DNA of 58,458 nt from a virus (lineage: Duplodnaviria; Heunggongvirae; Uroviricota; Caudoviricetes): IMG/VR virus record IMGVR_UViG_2724679172_000006. The stretch is one strand, 5' to 3'. Position numbers and translations under genes: made by a program. The notes beneath the pieces are model-generated. The model was given only the letters and a program-made list of their open reading frames with translations. It did not search any database and had not been told where the DNA came from. Shown here piece by piece: positions 5,971 through 45,891 of this stretch (position 1 is the first letter of the stretch; each line of letters begins with the position of its first letter).

Positions 5971-6659
5971 TCTTCAAGGGATTTCTCCGCATATTCACCG
6001 GACAGGCCATCAATCGGATGCGGTTCATTAGCCAACTCTTCTTTCGCTGACAAAATCATGCGTGTAACGTCGAAAACTTCACGCAAAGATTTATTGATAA
6101 ATCCGTGATTGAACGCAGCAGCAAGACGGCTGGCGGTATAGTTAATCCCCTCGTTGCGTGCTTCCGCACGAATTTCAGCCAGAAAAGCATCGGTGGCTGA
6201 AATATTTCCTGTTGCCTTCATGGCCCCCAAAATAACCAGAACGCCATCTCGCCCAACCTCCTCAGCGATAACCTCGGTGTTGTCGCCAACAACATCGCAG
6301 AATGCCTGAACTGCCTTACGAGCCAGCTCATTCTCCGCCGCCAGCGCCGCGCACTTGGCCTCAAGAGCGGCAACCACTTCCTGATGGTCTTTGTACTTAA
6401 CGTATGAGCCGGAGATGTCATCACCTTCGGTGTTTAGCCATGCGTCATTGCAATTCACTGCGTAGGTTCTGATGCTCATGTTGATGCTCTCCCGCCCCTG
6501 ACAGACGCTAGGCCAGTCAATAAAGTATCCGCAATGCCTACCCTCAGACGTGCGCGCAGGATAAATGCCGTTATGACCCGGCAAAATATATGCTACCCAT
6601 TCATCTTGCGTTGCCTGTTTCGCCGCCTCGCGCAGTTCTTTATAGTTAATTTCGCTCAC
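5934..6659 (-). CDS. Ead/Ea22-like phage protein
   Basis: N-terminus MSEINYKELREAAKQATQDEW..; C-terminal AEQIRKGGKQ shared with next gene. Confidence 0.45.
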   Translation of the reverse strand: MSEINYKELREAAKQATQDEWVAYILPGHNGIYPARTSEGRHCGYFIDWPSVCQGRESINMSIRTYAVNCNDAWLNTEGDDISGSYVKYKDHQEVVAALEAKCAALAAENELARKAVQAFCDVVGDNTEVIAEEVGRDGVLVILGAMKATGNISATDAFLAEIRAEARNEGINYTASRLAAAFNHGFINKSLREVFDVTRMILSAKEELANEPHPIDGLSGEYAEKSLEEWAEQIRKGGKQ

Positions 6660-32140: not shown

Positions 32141-33337
32141 ATGAGTGATTCCAGCCAGCTTCACAAGGTTGCTCAAAGAGCAAACAGAATGCTCAATGTT
32201 CTGACTGAACAAGTACAGTTGCAAAAGGATGAGCTACACGCGAACGAGTTTTACCAGGTCTATGCGAAAGCGGCACTGGCAAAATTGCCTCTACTGACTC
32301 GAGCGAACGTTGACTATGCCGTAAGTGAAATGGAAGAAAAGGGTTATGTTTTCGATAAACGCCCTGCTGGCTCTTCAATGAAATATGCGATGTCAATTCA
32401 GAACATCATTGACATATATGAACATCGCGGAGTGCCAAAATACCGGGATCGCTACAGCGAAGCGTATGTGATTTTCATCTCCAATCTTAAAGGCGGTGTG
32501 TCAAAAACTGTATCGACGGTTTCTCTGGCGCATGCAATGCGTGCTCATCCTCATCTTCTGATGGAAGATTTAAGGATTCTGGTTATTGACCTTGATCCGC
32601 AATCTTCAGCAACGATGTTTTTAAGCCATAAACACTCTATTGGTATCGTAAACGCAACATCTGCACAGGCTATGTTGCAGAATGTAAGCCGTGAAGAGCT
32701 GTTAGAGGAGTTTATTGTTCCTTCTGTTGTACCTGGGGTTGACGTTATGCCTGCGTCGATTGACGATGCCTTTATTGCATCCGATTGGAGAGAGCTGTGC
32801 AATGAGCATCTACCGGGTCAGAACATCCATGCAGTCCTGAAAGAAAATGTGATTGATAAGCTGAAGAGCGATTATGACTTTATCCTCGTTGATAGTGGTC
32901 CTCACCTTGACGCCTTCCTGAAAAATGCTTTGGCCTCGGCCAATATACTGTTTACACCTCTGCCGCCTGCAACGGTTGATTTCCACTCATCGCTTAAATA
33001 CGTTGCCCGCCTTCCTGAGTTGGTGAAACTCATTTCGGATGAAGGCTGCGAGTGTCAGCTTGCAACTAACATTGGTTTTATGTCCAAGTTGAGTAACAAG
33101 GCAGACCATAAGTATTGCCATAGCCTGGCTAAAGAAGTGTTCGGTGGGGATATGCTTGATGTCGTCCTCCCTCGCCTTGACGGTTTTGAACGCTGCGGCG
33201 AGTCTTTTGACACTGTTATTTCAGCTAACCCGGCAACGTATGTTGGTAGTGCTGATGCATTGAAGAACGCGCGAATTGCCGCGGAAGATTTTGCTAAAGC
33301 AGTTTTTGACCGTATTGAATTTATCAGATCTAACTGA
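32141..33337 (+). CDS. parA: partition ATPase ParA (type Ia, with N-terminal DNA-binding extension)
   Basis: 398 aa; deviant Walker A NLKGGVSKT; directly upstream of parB and parS. Confidence 0.9.
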   Translation: MSDSSQLHKVAQRANRMLNVLTEQVQLQKDELHANEFYQVYAKAALAKLPLLTRANVDYAVSEMEEKGYVFDKRPAGSSMKYAMSIQNIIDIYEHRGVPKYRDRYSEAYVIFISNLKGGVSKTVSTVSLAHAMRAHPHLLMEDLRILVIDLDPQSSATMFLSHKHSIGIVNATSAQAMLQNVSREELLEEFIVPSVVPGVDVMPASIDDAFIASDWRELCNEHLPGQNIHAVLKENVIDKLKSDYDFILVDSGPHLDAFLKNALASANILFTPLPPATVDFHSSLKYVARLPELVKLISDEGCECQLATNIGFMSKLSNKADHKYCHSLAKEVFGGDMLDVVLPRLDGFERCGESFDTVISANPATYVGSADALKNARIAAEDFAKAVFDRIEFIRSN

Positions 33338-36347: not shown

Positions 36348-37937
36348 ATGTCTCAATATTCAATTCAACAGTCATTAGGTAATGCATCCGGCGTCGCGGT
36401 TAGCCCGATCAATGCCGATGCGACGTTATCTACCGGTGTTGCATTAAATAGCAGCTTGTGGGCTGGTATTGGCGTATTTGCGCGTGGCAAGCCGTTTACT
36501 GTTCTTGCGGTTACTGAGTCCAATTACGAAGATGTTCTCGGCGAACCGCTGAAGCCGTCTTCCGGCTCACAGTTCGAACCAATTCGCCATGTATACGAAG
36601 CTATTCAGCAAACATCTGGTTATGTTGTTCGCGCTGTTCCGGATGATGCGAAGTTCCCGATTATTATGTTCGATGAATCAGGCGAACCGGCTTACAGTGC
36701 GTTGCCATACGGTTCTGAAATTGAACTTGATAGTGGCGAAGCCTTTGCTATCTACGTTGATGATGGTGATCCGTGTATTTCACCTACCCGTGAGTTAACC
36801 ATCGAAACGGCAACAGCGGACAGCGCGGGTAATGAACGCTTCCTCTTAAAACTGACCCAGACGACTTCGCTCGGTGTGGTAACGACCCTGGAGACACACA
36901 CTGTGTCTTTGGCGGAAGAAGCGAAAGATGACATGGGCCGCTTGTGTTATCTGCCTACGGCTCTGGAAGCCCGTTCTAAATATCTGCGCGCGGTTGTTAA
37001 TGAAGAGCTGATTTCGACAGCGAAAGTAACAAACAAAAAATCGTTGGCGTTCACTGGCGGTACCAACGGCGATCAGTCGAAAATCTCAACCGCTGCGTAC
37101 CTGCGTGCGGTGAAAGTGCTGAACAATGCGCCGTACATGTACACCGCTGTTCTCGGCCTGGGGTGCTATGACAATGCGGCGATCACTGCGTTAGGTAATA
37201 TCTGTTCTGATCGCCTGATTGATGGCTTCTTTGATGTCAAACCGACATTGACGTACACGGAAGCGATCTCTGCTGTTGAAGATACCGGTTTACTTGGTAC
37301 CGATTATGTAAGCTGTGCTGTCTATCATTTCCCGTTCTCCTGCAAAGACAAATGGACCCAATCCCGCGTGGTCTTCGGTCTGTCTGGCGCGGCGTATGCG
37401 GCGAAAGCTCGTGGCGTCAAGAAAAACTCCGATGTCGGCGGTTGGCATTACTCACCGGCTGGTGAAGAACGTGCCGTCATAGCTCGTGCATCACTTCAGC
37501 CGCTGTATCCTGAAGACACCCCGGACGAAGAAGCTATGGTCAAGGGCCGACTCAATAAAGTATCTGTAGGTACTTCGGGCCAGATGATCATCGATGATGC
37601 TTTAACTTGCTGCACGCAGGACAACTATCTGCATTTCCAGCACGTCCCATCCCTGATGAACGCAATCAGCCGTTTCTTTGTCCAGTTAGCCCGACAGATG
37701 AAGCATAACCCGGACGGCATTACTGAGTCTGGCCTGACTAAAGGGATGACCAAACTTTTGGATCGCTTTGTCGCCTCCGGCGCTCTGGTGGCTCCTCGTG
37801 ATCCTGATGCTGACGGTACAGAACCGTATGTGCTGAAAGTTACGCAGGCGGAATTCGATAAATGGGAAGTAGTCTGGGCCTGCTGCCCGACTGGCGTAGC
37901 CCGTCGTATCCAGGGCGTACCGCTGCTTATTAAGTAA
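36348..37937 (+). CDS. contractile tail sheath protein, gp22-like
   Basis: 529 aa (about 57 kDa); size and position. Confidence 0.5.
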   Translation: MSQYSIQQSLGNASGVAVSPINADATLSTGVALNSSLWAGIGVFARGKPFTVLAVTESNYEDVLGEPLKPSSGSQFEPIRHVYEAIQQTSGYVVRAVPDDAKFPIIMFDESGEPAYSALPYGSEIELDSGEAFAIYVDDGDPCISPTRELTIETATADSAGNERFLLKLTQTTSLGVVTTLETHTVSLAEEAKDDMGRLCYLPTALEARSKYLRAVVNEELISTAKVTNKKSLAFTGGTNGDQSKISTAAYLRAVKVLNNAPYMYTAVLGLGCYDNAAITALGNICSDRLIDGFFDVKPTLTYTEAISAVEDTGLLGTDYVSCAVYHFPFSCKDKWTQSRVVFGLSGAAYAAKARGVKKNSDVGGWHYSPAGEERAVIARASLQPLYPEDTPDEEAMVKGRLNKVSVGTSGQMIIDDALTCCTQDNYLHFQHVPSLMNAISRFFVQLARQMKHNPDGITESGLTKGMTKLLDRFVASGALVAPRDPDADGTEPYVLKVTQAEFDKWEVVWACCPTGVARRIQGVPLLIK

Positions 37938-39918: not shown

Positions 39919-39943
39919 TAAAGCTCCTGCGGGAGCTTTTTTT
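39919..39943 (+). terminator. intrinsic terminator
   Basis: AAAGCTCCtgcGGGAGCTTTTTTT. Confidence 0.6.
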
Positions 39944-40035
39944 ATAACTATTTTATATAAACATGCATCGATAACATTGTCTGGAGTTTTATGTTAGATT
40001 ATTAATGTTCTAATAAACTACAATTATTGAGGTAG

Positions 40036-40668
40036 ATGTTTGTGCCTGTACTGTTAAAGGGGGACTCTAAAATGGCTGTGATTCCAATGTCGTACTCCCC
40101 GGGTACTGTCGCTCGTCGATTTTCGATCCTGGACGGAGTTACCATCCAGGGTGTGCTTTACCAGGTTATATGGGATTCCAAAACCCCATTTGCAGCTGTA
40201 ATAGAGGCTGCGCCTTCTGTTATCGATGGTGATATGCGCCATAAGGTTGTCGCTACTCTTGAACTTCAACGTCGCCCGCAGCTTGAAGGCGTACTGGTAA
40301 GGAAGTTCTGGGAGGATAGCGATGTTGCCCAGATTGAAGGTATTGTGGTTGATGGAACCGTCCGTGATGTCGGTTTAGCTACTTTTGTTTACGAAACCGT
40401 AGCCTCAAAAGCTGGTGTTGTTTTGCTTAGTGATAATGAGCAATACGAAGGTGGAAAAGCTCTTTGGCAACACATCGCCCGTCGCTCTTCCGAGCTAAAA
40501 GTGTTTATCCTCGACACCGATGCCGCTCAGTATTACCCGTTTGACGGCGAACGTGTTTGCTATGACGGGGTAAGTATTCCTGAATCTGAGATATGGAGTG
40601 AACACCCAGATCGAAGTAAGCATGGGGTTGTTCTTGTCGCTGAATCCATAACTGGAAAGGCGGCATAG
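40036..40668 (+). CDS. hypothetical protein (likely start at 40072)
   Basis: ORF track; GGGGGA before ATG at 40072. Confidence 0.5.
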   Translation: MFVPVLLKGDSKMAVIPMSYSPGTVARRFSILDGVTIQGVLYQVIWDSKTPFAAVIEAAPSVIDGDMRHKVVATLELQRRPQLEGVLVRKFWEDSDVAQIEGIVVDGTVRDVGLATFVYETVASKAGVVLLSDNEQYEGGKALWQHIARRSSELKVFILDTDAAQYYPFDGERVCYDGVSIPESEIWSEHPDRSKHGVVLVAESITGKAA

Positions 40669-40962
40669 CAGTAAAATTCCTTGCTCCTTAAAAGGGGAGA
40701 GGGTTAATCTAGATATGCTAAGCATGGATATGGCCTCAGATTAATGTTAAGCGTCTTGCAGGACGCGTAATGTTATCTGGGGCTTTCTTCTGTTATTTGT
40801 TTGAGTGCTAGGTAGCAAAGAGAGCTAGCATTCATCAGGCAAATCTATCAATAAATAGCGTTAGTTTTTGTTGTGTGTATGTTTCTTTATTGTTATTGTT
40901 ATTGTGTTGTTTGTTTTTTGGACAACGCAATTCCTATAATCTATAGAATAAAGGAAGTATAT

Positions 40963-41250
40963 ATGGCTGATGTACGCATTACTTGCATTACCCTCTCCGG
41001 CTCGCAATCAATCCATGAGCATATTACTCATGTGGGAAGTCCTCAATTTAATACTAGCAATGGGAAATGGACTGTTGAGCAGGTAATTAATGCTATTGAT
41101 AATAATCTCCATACATTCTATGTAACAGATAATGCAGGTAATCGTGTAGAAGTTGGGGTTGTTAATCCTGGTAATGGTGGAAGGCAGTTTATTAGAACGT
41201 ATGCAGACAATCGATGGAATAATAATTTACTATCGCTACCAGTCTGTTAA
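40963..41250 (+). CDS. DUF3892-like small protein
   Basis: About 95 aa ending ..RQFIRTYADNRWNNNLLSLPVC, matching the conserved C-terminus of DUF3892 proteins; AAGGAAG before ATG; low-GC gene after an AT-rich leader. Confidence 0.45.
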   Translation: MADVRITCITLSGSQSIHEHITHVGSPQFNTSNGKWTVEQVINAIDNNLHTFYVTDNAGNRVEVGVVNPGNGGRQFIRTYADNRWNNNLLSLPVC

Positions 41251-41261
41251 TGTAATTTTAT

Positions 41262-41297
41262 AAAAAAGGCTGCAACCTCTGTTGCAGCCTTTTTTTA
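41262..41297. terminator. bidirectional intrinsic terminator
   Basis: AAAAAAGGCTGCAACctctGTTGCAGCCTTTTTTT between convergent genes. Confidence 0.7.
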
Positions 41298-41320
41298 GCC
41301 ATTATGACTGAGATAAGCCA

Positions 41321-42376
41321 CTATAAACTCTGAACAAGACGTTCGATTGCTGCACCATATCTTTCTAATGGTTCATTATTGATTTGTGGCTCAGTGTCAT
41401 GGATCTGATATCTGCCTGGTTTTATATCAAATAGAGGTCTTCCTAGATGGGAAGATACTATAGCTACGGAATGGTTATCTGGCACAGTAAACGTTTTTAA
41501 ATTTCCGCCTTGGAACGCTGTTGGTTTATTCGTCCGCAGATTTTCAGCTCTATCCCTGATTTCGTCGAACATTGCCGAAAACGCTTTACTTGCTCGTTTG
41601 TCATACTCTGTCGAACGATTAAAAACTAGAGAATGAATGACAGGAACCGCTAGACCAAACTGTTGACACCGATCGTAAAAGTTAACAGAACGATAATCGT
41701 TTTGTACTCCAACGCCATAAACCAACTGGCTTAGGTTATCCACTGCTCGAGCCGAAGAACCATCACTTGAGCAAGGTATTATAATTGCATTTGCTGCTAT
41801 CAGTGATAGTTCGGTATAGGCAGAGAAACTGGGGTTGCAATCAATAAAGCAAATGGTTTCTTCGATACCTTGTTGTTGTGCACATGCAACAAGCAAATCT
41901 CGTAGCCACAGGTGGATGCTTTTCCATGAGTCAACTGGTAAGTTTACGCTGCTTAACTGATTGATTACTTGCGCCTGAACTTCCAGGCTTGGGTCGCCTG
42001 CAATCAAAAATACATTGTCAGGGACATGCCCGTTAATTTCAGAGACATGAATTAAGAAACTTGTTTCTGAACCGGTAAGCATGTGGGGGCTGCGAGTTCT
42101 TCTGTCAAAGTACCCACCGACAGTTTTTCGTTGTTGAATTAAGTTCGCGAGGTTAGCAGCACCAGTACCGTTACCGCCGAGCAATATTTCAGATAAGTTA
42201 GCCTGCGGGCACATATCTGCAAAAATAATACGCTTTTCTGGATTTTGCCTTGCGTATTCACAGGCCATAGCGAAAGATAAGTATGTCTTTCCTACGCCAC
42301 CTTTATTATTCCAAATAGCATACGATTTCATGGTATCCCCGGCGTTATCTGCTGTTTGTGTGCCAGCATAAGTCAT
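41321..42376 (-). CDS. ParA/MinD-superfamily ATPase with C-terminal extension
   Basis: Walker A IWNNKGGVGKT; 351 aa; downstream of repL-like gene on same strand; likely start at internal MKSYAIW. Confidence 0.6.
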   Translation of the reverse strand: MTYAGTQTADNAGDTMKSYAIWNNKGGVGKTYLSFAMACEYARQNPEKRIIFADMCPQANLSEILLGGNGTGAANLANLIQQRKTVGGYFDRRTRSPHMLTGSETSFLIHVSEINGHVPDNVFLIAGDPSLEVQAQVINQLSSVNLPVDSWKSIHLWLRDLLVACAQQQGIEETICFIDCNPSFSAYTELSLIAANAIIIPCSSDGSSARAVDNLSQLVYGVGVQNDYRSVNFYDRCQQFGLAVPVIHSLVFNRSTEYDKRASKAFSAMFDEIRDRAENLRTNKPTAFQGGNLKTFTVPDNHSVAIVSSHLGRPLFDIKPGRYQIHDTEPQINNEPLERYGAAIERLVQSL

Positions 42377-42640
42377 TATGCATCTCCATTACTATCCATG
42401 AATTAAGTCAAAAAATATGTAAAAGTAGCAATGTATCACTCTTTTACTCATTATAAACGTTACAAGTTGTGATGGTTAGCTGTGTTTTTATCAGTACAAG
42501 TTTTGATCTGGCTTTGGGTTTTTATATATGGATATGTCTCAACGATGCCCTGCAAAAAGTGATCGCTAACTGTAAAAAATCAGATTGCATCTCCGACCTC
42601 AAACTGAAAACGCCAGGTGACTCCAGATTAGAGCAATCTA

Positions 42641-43486
42641 TCACCCCCTGAATCCTGCCGGTATACCCCATTTTTCGTTATCTTTATTTTTGGCTAAAAC
42701 CGCATTAAGAGCTTCGTTTACCGTCATGCAATGCGGTAGATTATCGAAGTTTGATATCCCGCCAATATCAGGCGAACGCTTGTTCTTCAGGTAAGCATAT
42801 TTCCGCCCAGCCGCCTCTACTTTCTGCTTGAACTCATGTTTTTGAGCGCGTTTTTTGGATAACCGCAGATTGTCAGCCTTTGCTTTTGCCTCAGCGATCC
42901 ATGAAGTCAATTTTTTGAGTCTGGTCGTTCCGGCACCGCCGGAAACTGATCTTTTTGTTTTTTTAACTTGTGACTTCTTATTCTTTATTGCCACGTCATC
43001 CTGACAGGGGGAGGGGGTATCATTTTGACATGGGGGTGTGGATAAAAAATCAAATAAAGCCAATGTCTTAGCGAGAACAGCTTTAACCTTGGTTGCCGCT
43101 GAAGAGATCTTTAATTTGCTTTCAATCAGCGCATTTTTGGCTTGTTGTGCGAAGGCGAAAAAGGATGGTGTAAACCGGTACAGGTTAGCGCGACGTTCAT
43201 GGTGATCGCCGATAACAATCTCTACAGACAGAATTCCTTTGTTTACAGCTTCACGGAATGCACGAACGACGGTTGATTGGCTATAACCAGTTTCTGCCGC
43301 GATCAGGCGGTGGGGCTTGTGAATGAAGTATTCACTGGTTGTTGCCGCGAGATTTGCACATTGCGACAGGATATGCCCGGCGCTACGGGATAGACCGGAG
43401 TGTGTTACAAAGAAGGCCAATTCATAGCCAGAAAAAGTAAAATCGCTCATCGTTATACAGCTCAGGAAAGTGACTTTAGCCAGCAT
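42641..43486 (-). CDS. repL: lytic-replicon initiator, RepL-like
   Basis: 281 aa; helix-turn-helix segment GYSQSTVVRAFREAVNKGIL; immediately downstream of kilA. Confidence 0.55.
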   Translation of the reverse strand: MLAKVTFLSCITMSDFTFSGYELAFFVTHSGLSRSAGHILSQCANLAATTSEYFIHKPHRLIAAETGYSQSTVVRAFREAVNKGILSVEIVIGDHHERRANLYRFTPSFFAFAQQAKNALIESKLKISSAATKVKAVLAKTLALFDFLSTPPCQNDTPSPCQDDVAIKNKKSQVKKTKRSVSGGAGTTRLKKLTSWIAEAKAKADNLRLSKKRAQKHEFKQKVEAAGRKYAYLKNKRSPDIGGISNFDNLPHCMTVNEALNAVLAKNKDNEKWGIPAGFRG

Positions 43487-43515: not shown

Positions 43516-44346
43516 TTAGCGCGTTGCCGCGACAGGTACCAGCACACCAGCATCAAGCAATCGCTTCATCAGCCACTGCTGACCTTTGCCGGTTATACGA
43601 GTCGTGAAAGAAATCCTGCTTCCATTGCTTGTATCGATCACGGTTTCTTTAAGGGTGAAATACCCACGGGATATGTATTCTTGTTTGGGGACGTTCCTGC
43701 GTTCACCGGTTGCGATCAGAATTCCGTTATCACGCAACCAGGTGAAGAGATAGTTTTGGCCCAGGCCGAGCACTTTGGCATAGTTGCCGATTAGAACCCC
43801 GCTGGCGGTAGCAACGCGTTCAGCGAATTCGACTTTAGGTGCATCCATAAGCATTTTTTGCTCCAGCCGTTGCTTTTGCTCTGCCAGGTCGGCAGCCAAA
43901 CGGAGAGCTTCAGGGAGACTCTGCGGAATAGCAGGTTGTAATCTTCCGGTTCGATAGTCGATAAATGTCTGGTTTACCTTCAGCCGAAACGCGGGAGAAA
44001 TCCAGCCTGCGTACTCCACAGCGAGCAATTCATGGGCAAAAGTGCCGCCGCCACGGCCTTCGAACGAAACTATGCAATTCTGCATAGTTTCTTTTTCAAG
44101 CTCTTCGATGAGCTGTTTAGCTGACAGCGTTCTTAGCCATTGAGCTGGCGCTTTATGGGCACCGAGTCCGCTCGCTCTGTGTAGAGCATTAAGGTTGTAA
44201 CGGCCAGCGCGGTCGGTCGTAATTTCAACACCACAAATAACGGGCAGAGTGGTTGAAGGATCGACATTTTGATGAAGGTTTGATATATTCATATCCGCAT
44301 TGAATGTTTGTTGCATTTTTTTCTCCAAATTTGCATCAACCTTCAA
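43516..44346 (-). CDS. kilA: KilA-N domain protein with antirepressor-like C-terminal domain
   Basis: KilA-N region IVSFEGRGGGTFAHELLAVEYAGWISPAFRLKV; C-terminal 140 aa paralogous to C-terminus of Ant. Confidence 0.7.
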   Translation of the reverse strand: MKVDANLEKKMQQTFNADMNISNLHQNVDPSTTLPVICGVEITTDRAGRYNLNALHRASGLGAHKAPAQWLRTLSAKQLIEELEKETMQNCIVSFEGRGGGTFAHELLAVEYAGWISPAFRLKVNQTFIDYRTGRLQPAIPQSLPEALRLAADLAEQKQRLEQKMLMDAPKVEFAERVATASGVLIGNYAKVLGLGQNYLFTWLRDNGILIATGERRNVPKQEYISRGYFTLKETVIDTSNGSRISFTTRITGKGQQWLMKRLLDAGVLVPVAATR

Positions 44347-44481: not shown

Positions 44482-45891
44482 TTAACCTATTGCTACTGGT
44501 TTTAACAAACCAGCATCAAGTAGCTTGCGAGTTAACCACTGCTGGCCTTTACCCGTTAATTGGGGCGTCAGCCGTATCTGGTAGCCATTTTCATCATCCA
44601 GCACCACTTCTTTCACCGTGAAATACCCGGCGTTAATGTACTGCTGGCGCGGTACGTTTTTGCGCGCACCAAAAGCCATGAGAATGCCGTTCTGGCGCAA
44701 CCATGAGAAAAGGGCGTTTTGCTTAAGTCCAACGACCTTTGCAAAGTTCCCGATCAGGATTCCATTAGCCGCTGATACCCGGTCGGCAAAATCGACTTTA
44801 GGGGCTGCGGCCACCAGCTGTTGATTTAGCTGGTGGGTTTTCTGTTCCAGTAGCTGCTTTTGTTCAGCCAGCTCGGCAGCCAGGCGCAGAGCTTCGGGAA
44901 GCGTCTGGGGGATTGCGACCGGTTGCTGTTCTTTTTGCCGGAAGTAGCTGTCTTCCAGTTTTTCAAAGAATGCCCACGCTTGCTCTGTGTCTACGATCTT
45001 AGACATGCGTGCCGCTCCGCGTTCGGTCCAGAGTATTAAGGATCTGGTCTTGGGGGAAATTTGCAACTCGCTAAAAGATAGTCGCAAACTTTTTATCTCA
45101 TCTCCTTTGATTTTAAAGAAGTGTTTACCCTCTACAAATCGTTCTTCATTGCGATTGTAGTTCTGCTGAATACGAGTAGGTGTAGTGCCATACCCTCTAG
45201 CAAGAGTCTCGGTTGTCACGACGCGTACTCCCTGCCATTCCAGAACGGGAATTTCATCAGGATGATTTTCAACATTTATAGGTTCCAATGCCTGAATCAT
45301 GGTATGTAGCGAACGGCGGACCGCTTTTGACTCGCGCGCGGCAACTCGCAGGGCTTGTTTGTAGGTCATGGTTATGACAACCATAGGCGTACCGCCACCT
45401 GGCGGCACGGTTGCACTTTTTGTGTAACCGTCCTCACCTTCTAATTCGTCGAGTATTTTTTCGATGAATTTGTTGTTCCGAACCTCTGGTTCCCCACATA
45501 ACTTACGCGCTTCATTGACCATCTTTAACAGTGTCTGGCTGTCGATTGTGTCTCCAGTGTTGGAGATAACATTCACAGCTGGTGATGGCGTAGCTGAAGC
45601 AACAGGTGCTGTTTTTTCAACATTTAAATTATTACCGGTCATTCTATGTGCCTCCTTTCTCATTTCTGCTGCCACTGTTGCGTAACGTAGACGTCCTTGT
45701 TCAATCAAATAATCCCTGATCTCGGCTATCAGTAGCCTGTTGATCACAGCCTTATCTGTTCGGGTATAAAAACGTCTGGTTATCATGAAATAGTTAGCAA
45801 TTGCGCCGGGGATCTCCCGTGTCGGCATACAGGCAGTATGCAAGGCGATCGCTTCGGCTATTTCATTACGGGTGACGAGAGGTGTTTTCAT
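44482..45891 (-). CDS. ant: antirepressor Ant
   Basis: 469 aa; antirepressor-type N-terminal region and KilA-C-like C-terminus; start overlaps stop of icd-like ORF. Confidence 0.7.
   Translation of the reverse strand: MKTPLVTRNEIAEAIALHTACMPTREIPGAIANYFMITRRFYTRTDKAVINRLLIAEIRDYLIEQGRLRYATVAAEMRKEAHRMTGNNLNVEKTAPVASATPSPAVNVISNTGDTIDSQTLLKMVNEARKLCGEPEVRNNKFIEKILDELEGEDGYTKSATVPPGGGTPMVVITMTYKQALRVAARESKAVRRSLHTMIQALEPINVENHPDEIPVLEWQGVRVVTTETLARGYGTTPTRIQQNYNRNEERFVEGKHFFKIKGDEIKSLRLSFSELQISPKTRSLILWTERGAARMSKIVDTEQAWAFFEKLEDSYFRQKEQQPVAIPQTLPEALRLAAELAEQKQLLEQKTHQLNQQLVAAAPKVDFADRVSAANGILIGNFAKVVGLKQNALFSWLRQNGILMAFGARKNVPRQQYINAGYFTVKEVVLDDENGYQIRLTPQLTGKGQQWLTRKLLDAGLLKPVAIG

Follow-up and report, generated by a model that had tools for sequence, protein, structure and literature searches.

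ParA-type ATPases are the textbook motors of DNA segregation, in which they act with a ParB partner. What is then the role of a ParA-like ATPase encoded without such a partner in a P1-like phage-plasmid that has partition genes of its own? This question is raised by the IMG/VR virus record IMGVR_UViG_2724679172_000006, a whole stretch of 58,458 nucleotides (the window; coordinates refer to it unless another sequence is named). Next to repL, the gene of the lytic replicon, this P1-like phage-plasmid carries a gene for a ParA/MinD-family ATPase and, converging on it, the gene of a small DUF3892 protein. We have found that this region is a foreign, horizontally acquired 1.76-kb cargo cassette, and that its ATPase belongs to a widespread and highly mobile orphan ParA/MinD subfamily with preferred sites beside cI repressor genes and inside insertion sequence (IS) elements. 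The locus itself is ordinary cargo; the new part is this cI-linked and IS-borne ecology of the subfamily. As to function, we tentatively favour, at a little less than an even chance, the reading of the cassette as two independent accessory genes ("morons"), each a transcription unit of its own, with the ATPase as a solo conflict factor of the prophage state.

The ends of the cassette are sharp. BLASTN comparison with three P1-like plasmids (L105, L108 and L002) placed them at 40791|40792 and 42548|42549, and the 1757 bp in between replace a 262-bp segment of the "empty" and hok-type P1-like plasmids. The GC content of the cassette was 39% vs. 47% for the whole window. The DUF3892 gene and the ATPase gene face each other across a bidirectional intrinsic terminator, a 15-bp hairpin whose folding energy is -22.4 and -25.4 kcal/mol for the two strands (z-scores of -6.0 and -5.2, respectively), a stability not matched by any of 200 shuffles; a simple terminator scan did not pick it up. 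Because they converge across such a strong terminator, the two genes are not an operon. Upstream of the DUF3892 gene, the AT-rich leader contains 3.2 copies of TTATTG at 40887-40905 and a Shine-Dalgarno sequence, AAGGAAG, at 40951-40957. The low GC, the repeat-bearing leader and the strong terminator had all been pointed out in an initial annotation made from the sequence alone, and our measurements bear them out. RefSeq already carries both coding sequences, as "ParA family protein" and "DUF3892 domain-containing protein".

The cassette is a minority component of these elements. We found it in 40 of the 698 matching P1-like plasmids, i.e., ~94% lack it, and the records of phage P1 align to its flanks only. 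Among 5426 complete E. coli genomes it appeared in 39, every time on a plasmid (of ~70-190 kb, mostly ~95-100 kb), and no chromosomal copy was found in that set. Since both genes are absent from phage P1 and from most P1-like plasmids, they are dispensable cargo and not part of the core, in agreement with the earlier proposal that neither is needed for the functions encoded around them.

The larger gene had been ascribed to the ParA/MinD family on account of its KGGVGKT motif, and the profile searches agreed. Pfam gave AAA_31 (E=4e-15) and CbiA (E=4.5e-7), both above cut-offs, and PHROGs gave phrog_164, "ParA-like partition protein" (E=8e-43). The motif NNKGGVGKT includes a deviant Walker A (K25-GGVG-K30-T31), and a Walker A' aspartate (D54, in DMCPQ) and a Walker B aspartate (D179, in IDCNPS) complete the set of motif and aspartates that characterizes the ParA/MinD (deviant Walker A, SIMIBI) superfamily. 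K25, K30, D54 and D179 were invariant across 23 homologues, in a family alignment with a mean column identity of 66%. With all the ParA-type catalytic residues present, the enzyme is catalytically intact as judged from its sequence. The M1 start codon and a GGAG Shine-Dalgarno sequence are also kept among the enterobacterial homologues. The AlphaFold 2 model (predicted local distance difference test, pLDDT, 80; predicted TM-score, pTM, 0.84) has a predicted ParA/Soj-type alpha/beta fold, and the top Foldseek matches were ParA (8ray), Soj and McdA, with E values from 2e-8 to 3e-7 and target-normalised TM-scores of 0.63-0.73. The protein exceeds Soj/ParA by ~85-100 residues. These are spread over a disordered N-terminal tail of ~15 residues (residues 1-16), ~37 residues between Walker A and Walker B and ~43 residues in the C-terminal half, so that the C-terminal extension of ~100 residues originally suggested does not hold, and a discrete C-terminal domain was rejected on the basis of both the model and the alignments, which show distributed insertions.

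The element encodes partition proteins apart from this ATPase. Its own ParA and ParB genes, which by inspection we take to be of the P1 type (type Ia), adjoin a RepA-like gene, and the plasmid-maintenance module is thus complete without the cassette. The presence of this canonical pair makes the cassette ATPase an orphan and not the partition ATPase of the element. No ParB-like gene was found in the cassette, no partner protein recurs beside ~80 genomic and 70 viral homologues of the ATPase, and the ATPase falls outside the type I ParABS systems, which are defined by an adjacent parB (or parG/centromere-binding protein) gene and a parS site. Besides, the NCBIfam partition models were reached in the P-loop region only, with scores far below their cut-offs (39.8 bits vs. 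180 for ParA_partition, NF041546, and 20.6 bits vs. 348 for the RepA partition equivalog). The positions of all these features are collected in Table 1.

Table 1. Coordinates of the cassette, of the features inside it and of the neighbouring genes in the window.
Feature	Position	Strand	Basis or remark
Cargo cassette, 1757 bp	40792..42548	.	BLASTN breakpoints vs. L105, L108, L002
AT-rich leader of DUF3892 gene, 30% GC	40792..40962	+	Composition and repeat analysis
DUF3892 gene, 95 aa, MADVRITCITL...NNLLSLPVC	40963..41250	+	Pfam PF13031, phrog_8224
Bidirectional intrinsic terminator between the converging genes	41262..41297	.	15-bp stem, A-run and T-run flanks
Orphan ParA/MinD-family ATPase, 351 aa	41321..42376	-	Pfam, PHROGs, motif
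Cassette-borne region upstream of ATPase gene, 31% GC	42377..42548	-	Breakpoints, composition
hok/mok leader remnant, 90 bp, on the backbone directly left of the cassette	40702..40791	-	
RepA-like gene	29986-30870		Adjoins own ParA/ParB
Own ParA, 398 aa, KGGVSKT	32141-33337	+	ORF translation
Own ParB, 333 aa	33354-34355	+	ORF translation
Sheath gene	36348-37937	+	
pmgF-like open reading frame (ORF)	40036-40668	+	
repL, lytic replicon	42641..43486	-	phrog_2418 E=3.5e-155; RepL annotation in P1-type records
kilA	43516-44346	-	
ant	44482-45891	-	

Where is this ATPase found outside P1-like elements? We detected 4522 homologues, many of them 55-60% identical across distant bacterial phyla and some archaea. 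The nearest neighbours of ~80 genomic homologues were heterogeneous, and the only ones to recur were IS1595 and IS1 transposases and helix-turn-helix (HTH)/S24 repressors. In a Serratia prophage, one homologue directly follows a cI-type repressor gene of the same strand, and this order, again on one strand, is found in Pseudomonas phage phi297 (71% identity), in a Klebsiella phage (35% identity) and in the metagenomic contig L110, with a comparable immunity region in L111. Among the non-P1 contigs of IMG/VR, 43 distinct upstream neighbours of ATPase homologues could be compared, and HTH_3 was found in 31 of them and Peptidase_S24 in 25. The linkage to cI persists even in subfamilies that have only 35% identity to the window protein. 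Some immediate neighbours match restriction-modification, MADS and other PADLOC models, a hint of defence islands. We did not find this ecology, either cI-linked or IS-borne, described in the searchable literature.

The second preferred site is the insertion sequence. A transposase of the IS1595 or IS1 family was located directly beside the ATPase homologue in ~18 of 88 loci. In one Vicinamibacterales genome, an IS1595 unit of 2272 bp encloses the ATPase and transposase genes and is present in three copies (L073 7883-10154, L074 and L075) that are 99.96-100% identical, with 23-bp terminal inverted repeats and an 8-bp target duplication (ATCGGAAA). Among the homologues, conservation upstream of the gene ends at about -45, hence essentially the ORF alone moves. 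Upstream of some homologues, a stretch of 1.2-2 kb contains no called gene, or very small ones at most (L004 4001-6001; L008 4768-6001; L111 4511-6001). A structured RNA or long non-coding partner was rejected as a general feature, because other homologues have just 55-130 bp upstream and conservation stops so close to the start; in the window region, Rfam gave sub-threshold matches only.

The small gene of the cassette had been recognized as a DUF3892 member by its NNLLSLPVC ending, and the whole Pfam profile is indeed covered (PF13031, positions 1-71 of 71, E=1.7e-15, 57.7 bits vs. a gathering cut-off of 22.3), together with a PHROGs match to phrog_8224 (E=1e-37). The search returned 112 homologues. 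In the 32 diverse ones that were aligned, C8, H23 (inside the motif HEHITHVG) and the C-terminal C95 are invariant, and the family motifs HEHITHVG and WNNNLLSLP are conserved. These three residues suggest, from the alignment, either a metal site or a disulphide that would tie together both ends of the protein. In the literature, the family has been connected with predicted conflict systems (citing Burroughs & Aravind, 2020), and one paper proposes an RNA- or ribosome-sensing fold similar to the double-stranded RNA-binding domain (dsRBD) or to the hibernation-promoting factor (HPF). Our AlphaFold 2 model (pLDDT 81) had no significant Foldseek match in the PDB (best E = 0.6), so that the dsRBD/HPF-like fold was not confirmed.

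DUF3892 is a small-domain family that recurs as cargo in prophages, integrative and conjugative elements (ICEs) and Tn7-like elements with changing partners. The closest homologue outside P1-like elements (73% identity; L090-L094 ~6001-6288) stands alone, on the opposite strand, in a prophage/satellite region of E. coli. There its neighbours are, on one side, a truncated capsid-E gene of a lambdoid prophage and, on the other, a satellite-like block with AlpA, an HDPD decoration protein, capsid E, a single-strand binding protein (SSB) and a D5-type primase. In an ICE-like island of Salmonella (L095-L098 6001-7358) the gene is followed by one for an FRG-domain protein, and in the cargo of a Tn7-like element by DUF2188. 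In viral contigs the neighbours are varied. Genes for AAA_13 and ImmA/IrrE-type regulators are also found beside members of the family. A recurrent pattern was noticed in several loci (L095-L098, L204, L205, L217, L218, L224 and L228), in which a protein of ~270-345 residues, the FRG-domain protein in the Salmonella loci, is encoded 22-80 bp downstream on the same strand; unlike the arrangement in the window, this one may be a real two-gene module.

Are the ATPase and DUF3892 a pair? The initial annotation had joined them as a possible "small exclusion module", and the comparisons speak against it. By tblastn, DUF3892 is absent within ~8 kb of the 88 other genomic loci of the ATPase family. 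Of 80 ATPase loci in IMG/VR, it accompanies the 10 that are P1-like and none of the 70 others, and conversely ~30 non-P1 viral DUF3892 loci have no ParA-like gene. The closest relatives of the ATPase (85-90% identity) have other neighbours, and those of DUF3892 (73%) are alone or beside the FRG-domain protein. A conserved pair was accordingly rejected: DUF3892 stands beside this ATPase family in the P1 cassette only. Inside the cassette both genes are intact together in 38 of the 39 E. coli records and in the 40 plasmids. The link between them is physical and not demonstrably functional.

The slot that received the cassette is itself variable. The interval from bplB to repL (39943-42640) is a multi-allelic hotspot among the 698 P1-like plasmids, and the breakpoints of its alleles recur at identical positions. 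We have identified there hokD with or without IS421, an Ail/Lom outer-membrane protein, DUF3800, an 81-residue ORF alone, the pmgF-like gene, and the DUF3892 plus ParA-like cassette. The DUF3800 allele is the rlfA/rlfB allele of classical P1, located in the same slot. The cassette thus has the position of the P1 rlfA/rlfB region downstream of repL, with which a synteny comparison had been proposed, and a different gene content: the genes of the cassette showed no homology to rlfA or rlfB. A search of the literature gave no specific account of the bplB-repL hotspot of P1 or of a ParA-like defence gene.

The hok/mok leader remnant listed in Table 1 shares 95.6% identity with a segment that precedes hokD (L108) and mokW (L002) by 35-124 bp. 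It has no hok gene, matches also the hok/mok loci of lambdoid phages, and its Rfam sok match is weak (24 bits vs. a gathering score of 59). Just after bplB there is a GC-rich hairpin preceded by an A-run (39920-39957, minus strand), with a sub-threshold Rfam match to the terminator part of STnc130 (33.6 bits, gathering score 55). Most likely this hairpin is a further bidirectional terminator, placed where an allele begins or ends (39942). Three genes of the tail/baseplate region, on the plus strand, lie between the sheath gene and the pmgF-like ORF. On the other side, repL is upstream of the ATPase gene and on the same strand.

Signals for the expression of the two genes were also searched. 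A scan for the sigma-70 consensus found no promoter either in the leader of the DUF3892 gene or in the cassette-borne region upstream of the ATPase gene. The latter, itself part of the cassette, has two imperfect direct repeats (42461-42491 and 42495-42525; TACAAGTTGTGAT...TGTGTTTTTAT) at a spacing of 34 bp, located 85-150 bp ahead of the ATPase start codon. A function as operator or iteron is conceivable, but these repeats are not conserved in the upstream regions of the ATPase homologues.

We come back now to the function. In the reading that we tentatively favour, the ATPase would work alone and would be made in the prophage (lysogenic) state. Like ParA proteins, it would act by ATP-dependent dimerisation and non-specific binding to DNA, and in this way it might interfere with the replication, partition or establishment of competing phages, phage-plasmids and plasmids. 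It would then be a factor of exclusion or conflict rather than a motor of segregation. DUF3892 would be a stand-alone gene, from a family for which others have predicted binding to nucleic acids or ribosomes within conflict systems. The genomic context favours an exclusion or conflict role for the ATPase alone. A bolder version, which we regard as rather unlikely, would make of the orphan subfamily an unrecognised ParB-less, single-gene conflict system of the prophage state, which prophages, phage-plasmids and IS1595/IS1 elements would have carried across bacteria and archaea and which would block the establishment, replication or partition of incoming phages or plasmids through ATP-dependent DNA binding; in the P1 cassette it would possibly have been joined to DUF3892 as a nucleic-acid sensor, echoing the RtcR region of Gifsy-1.

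Several observations weigh against the favoured reading. The repL gene of P1 is part of a lytic operon repressed by C1, and since the ATPase gene is located downstream of repL, its expression could be lytic instead of lysogenic; we found neither a promoter nor a terminator between the two. A search of PADLOC-DB v2.0 (models to 2023) gave no match at E<=1 for the ATPase, for DUF3892 or for the pmgF-like protein, and membership of a known defence system was rejected on this ground. The PADLOC matches among the neighbours of the homologues include generic methyltransferases and a DprA-like match, and for this reason they overstate the association with defence islands. Many chromosomal homologues sit among housekeeping genes, surroundings that also fit a role in the cell biology of the host. 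Finally, the two genes are always inherited jointly among P1-like plasmids, as would also be expected if they were linked in function.

That link is the core of an alternative in which both genes form one functional module, with the ATPase as motor or effector and DUF3892 as sensor or adaptor, in the manner of ParA-ParB/ParG or McdA-McdB. The partners of ParA proteins are often small and fast-evolving, and both genes travel intact in a single 1757-bp block of common low GC. The convergence across a strong terminator, the lack of DUF3892 at the 88 genomic and 70 non-P1 viral ATPase loci, the ~30 non-P1 viral DUF3892 loci without a ParA-like gene and the different neighbours of the closest relatives of each gene make such a module very improbable. 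In a second alternative, the ATPase would serve the element that carries it, by auxiliary positioning or partition of the plasmid prophage or by assisting lytic replication, a "replication-linked function" like that of rlfA/rlfB for which the upstream repeats would possibly be the cis site. The ParA fold with its intact ATPase site, the location just downstream of repL on the same strand and the two direct repeats are consistent with it, and a review of phage phi297 speculated on a partition role for the homologue (PMC3564109). We consider it improbable, as a complete ParA-ParB is already present on the element, ~94% of the P1-like plasmids do without the ATPase gene, no ParB-like partner recurs and the repeats are not conserved. 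Besides, integrated prophages and insertion sequences have no need of partition, yet homologues without a ParB occur in them, and the positioning of the phage genome, which had been the initial suggestion, is disfavoured for the same reasons.

The IS-borne copies suggest still another explanation, in which the ATPase would be, above all, a selfish gene carried along by transposable elements, either with a part in target choice or immunity, like MuB, IstB or TnsC, or as a near-neutral hitchhiker, its presence in P1 being incidental. Its location inside a bona fide three-copy IS1595 unit with terminal inverted repeats and target duplication, the transposases adjacent in ~18 of 88 loci and the extreme spread across phyla all argue in this direction. 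However, a transposase gene does not adjoin the ATPase gene at most loci, among them the P1 cassette, and its persistent association with cI in prophages speaks for a role unrelated to transposition. A neutral hitchhiker is, in addition, hard to reconcile with the strong purifying selection apparent in the 66% mean column identity. We give little credence to this explanation and keep the solo conflict factor as our working interpretation.

A partner-less ParA subfamily that is found beside cI, in insertion sequences and in the hotspot of a phage-plasmid, with 55-60% identity across phyla, has a distinctive ecology. Should the ATPase turn out to act in exclusion or against plasmids, it would represent a new enzymatic class among the weapons of competing mobile elements, and it would explain a recurrent unannotated gene beside cI in many enterobacterial and Pseudomonas prophages. 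P1-like phage-plasmids spread mcr-1 and extended-spectrum beta-lactamase (ESBL) genes, and the cassette, as a further allele of a hotspot that also holds hok and Ail/Lom, could affect their coexistence with plasmids and phages. If there is no such role, this is an ordinary cargo cassette with two genes.

How does the orphan ATPase compare with systems already known? With the canonical type I ParABS systems (P1 ParA-ParB, Soj-Spo0J) it shares the fold with a deviant Walker A and the catalytic residues, and it differs from them in the absence of ParB, of an identified centromere and of an N-terminal HTH, and in ~80 extra residues in insertions. The rexA-rexB genes of lambda, like other genes of this class, are located beside cI, are expressed in the lysogen and exclude other phages. 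In at least 31 of 43 distinct prophage contexts, relatives of the ATPase have this position, directly downstream of cI with both genes in the same orientation, and the ATPase may have an exclusion phenotype too. There is no relationship of sequence or fold to the Rex proteins, and the cassette ATPase has repL upstream instead of a repressor.

Two orphan ParA-like proteins are precedents that support the favoured reading. ParI (PP_3700), from a genomic island of Pseudomonas putida KT2440, destabilises IncP-7 plasmids (PMC9178275, PMC8544851), and the effect requires an intact Walker A (PMC9178275). Both ParI and the cassette ATPase are stand-alone members of the ParA family on mobile DNA without a ParB of their own. 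We recovered the N-terminal 155 residues of ParI from a metagenome contig by means of the published cloning primer; over this N-terminal half only, identity to our ATPase was 27% over 66 residues, around Walker A only, and ParI has an N-terminal extension of ~75 residues before Walker A. Identification of the ATPase as ParI type was consequently rejected, and the similarity is by analogy only. In Salmonella Typhimurium 14028s, the orphan ParA-like gene STM14_3218 of the Gifsy-1 immunity region lies beside the prophage repressor and is followed by small hypothetical genes; its expression is unchanged by mitomycin C, and this three-gene region is required for activation of RtcR (a host RNA-damage response) and lowers the phage yield (PMC9879122). 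The resemblance is one of description: STM14_3218 has 840 bp (~279 residues vs. 351) and acts within the three-gene region. When the STM14_3218-3220 layout was sought in the Gifsy-like sequence L148, the repressor-ATPase order was present with a different downstream region. The predicted DUF3892 conflict systems, in turn, resemble the small gene of the cassette in the full profile match and in being cargo of prophages, ICEs and a Tn7-like element, and they differ from it in that the DUF3892 of the window is solo, with an unrelated ATPase as its sole neighbour.

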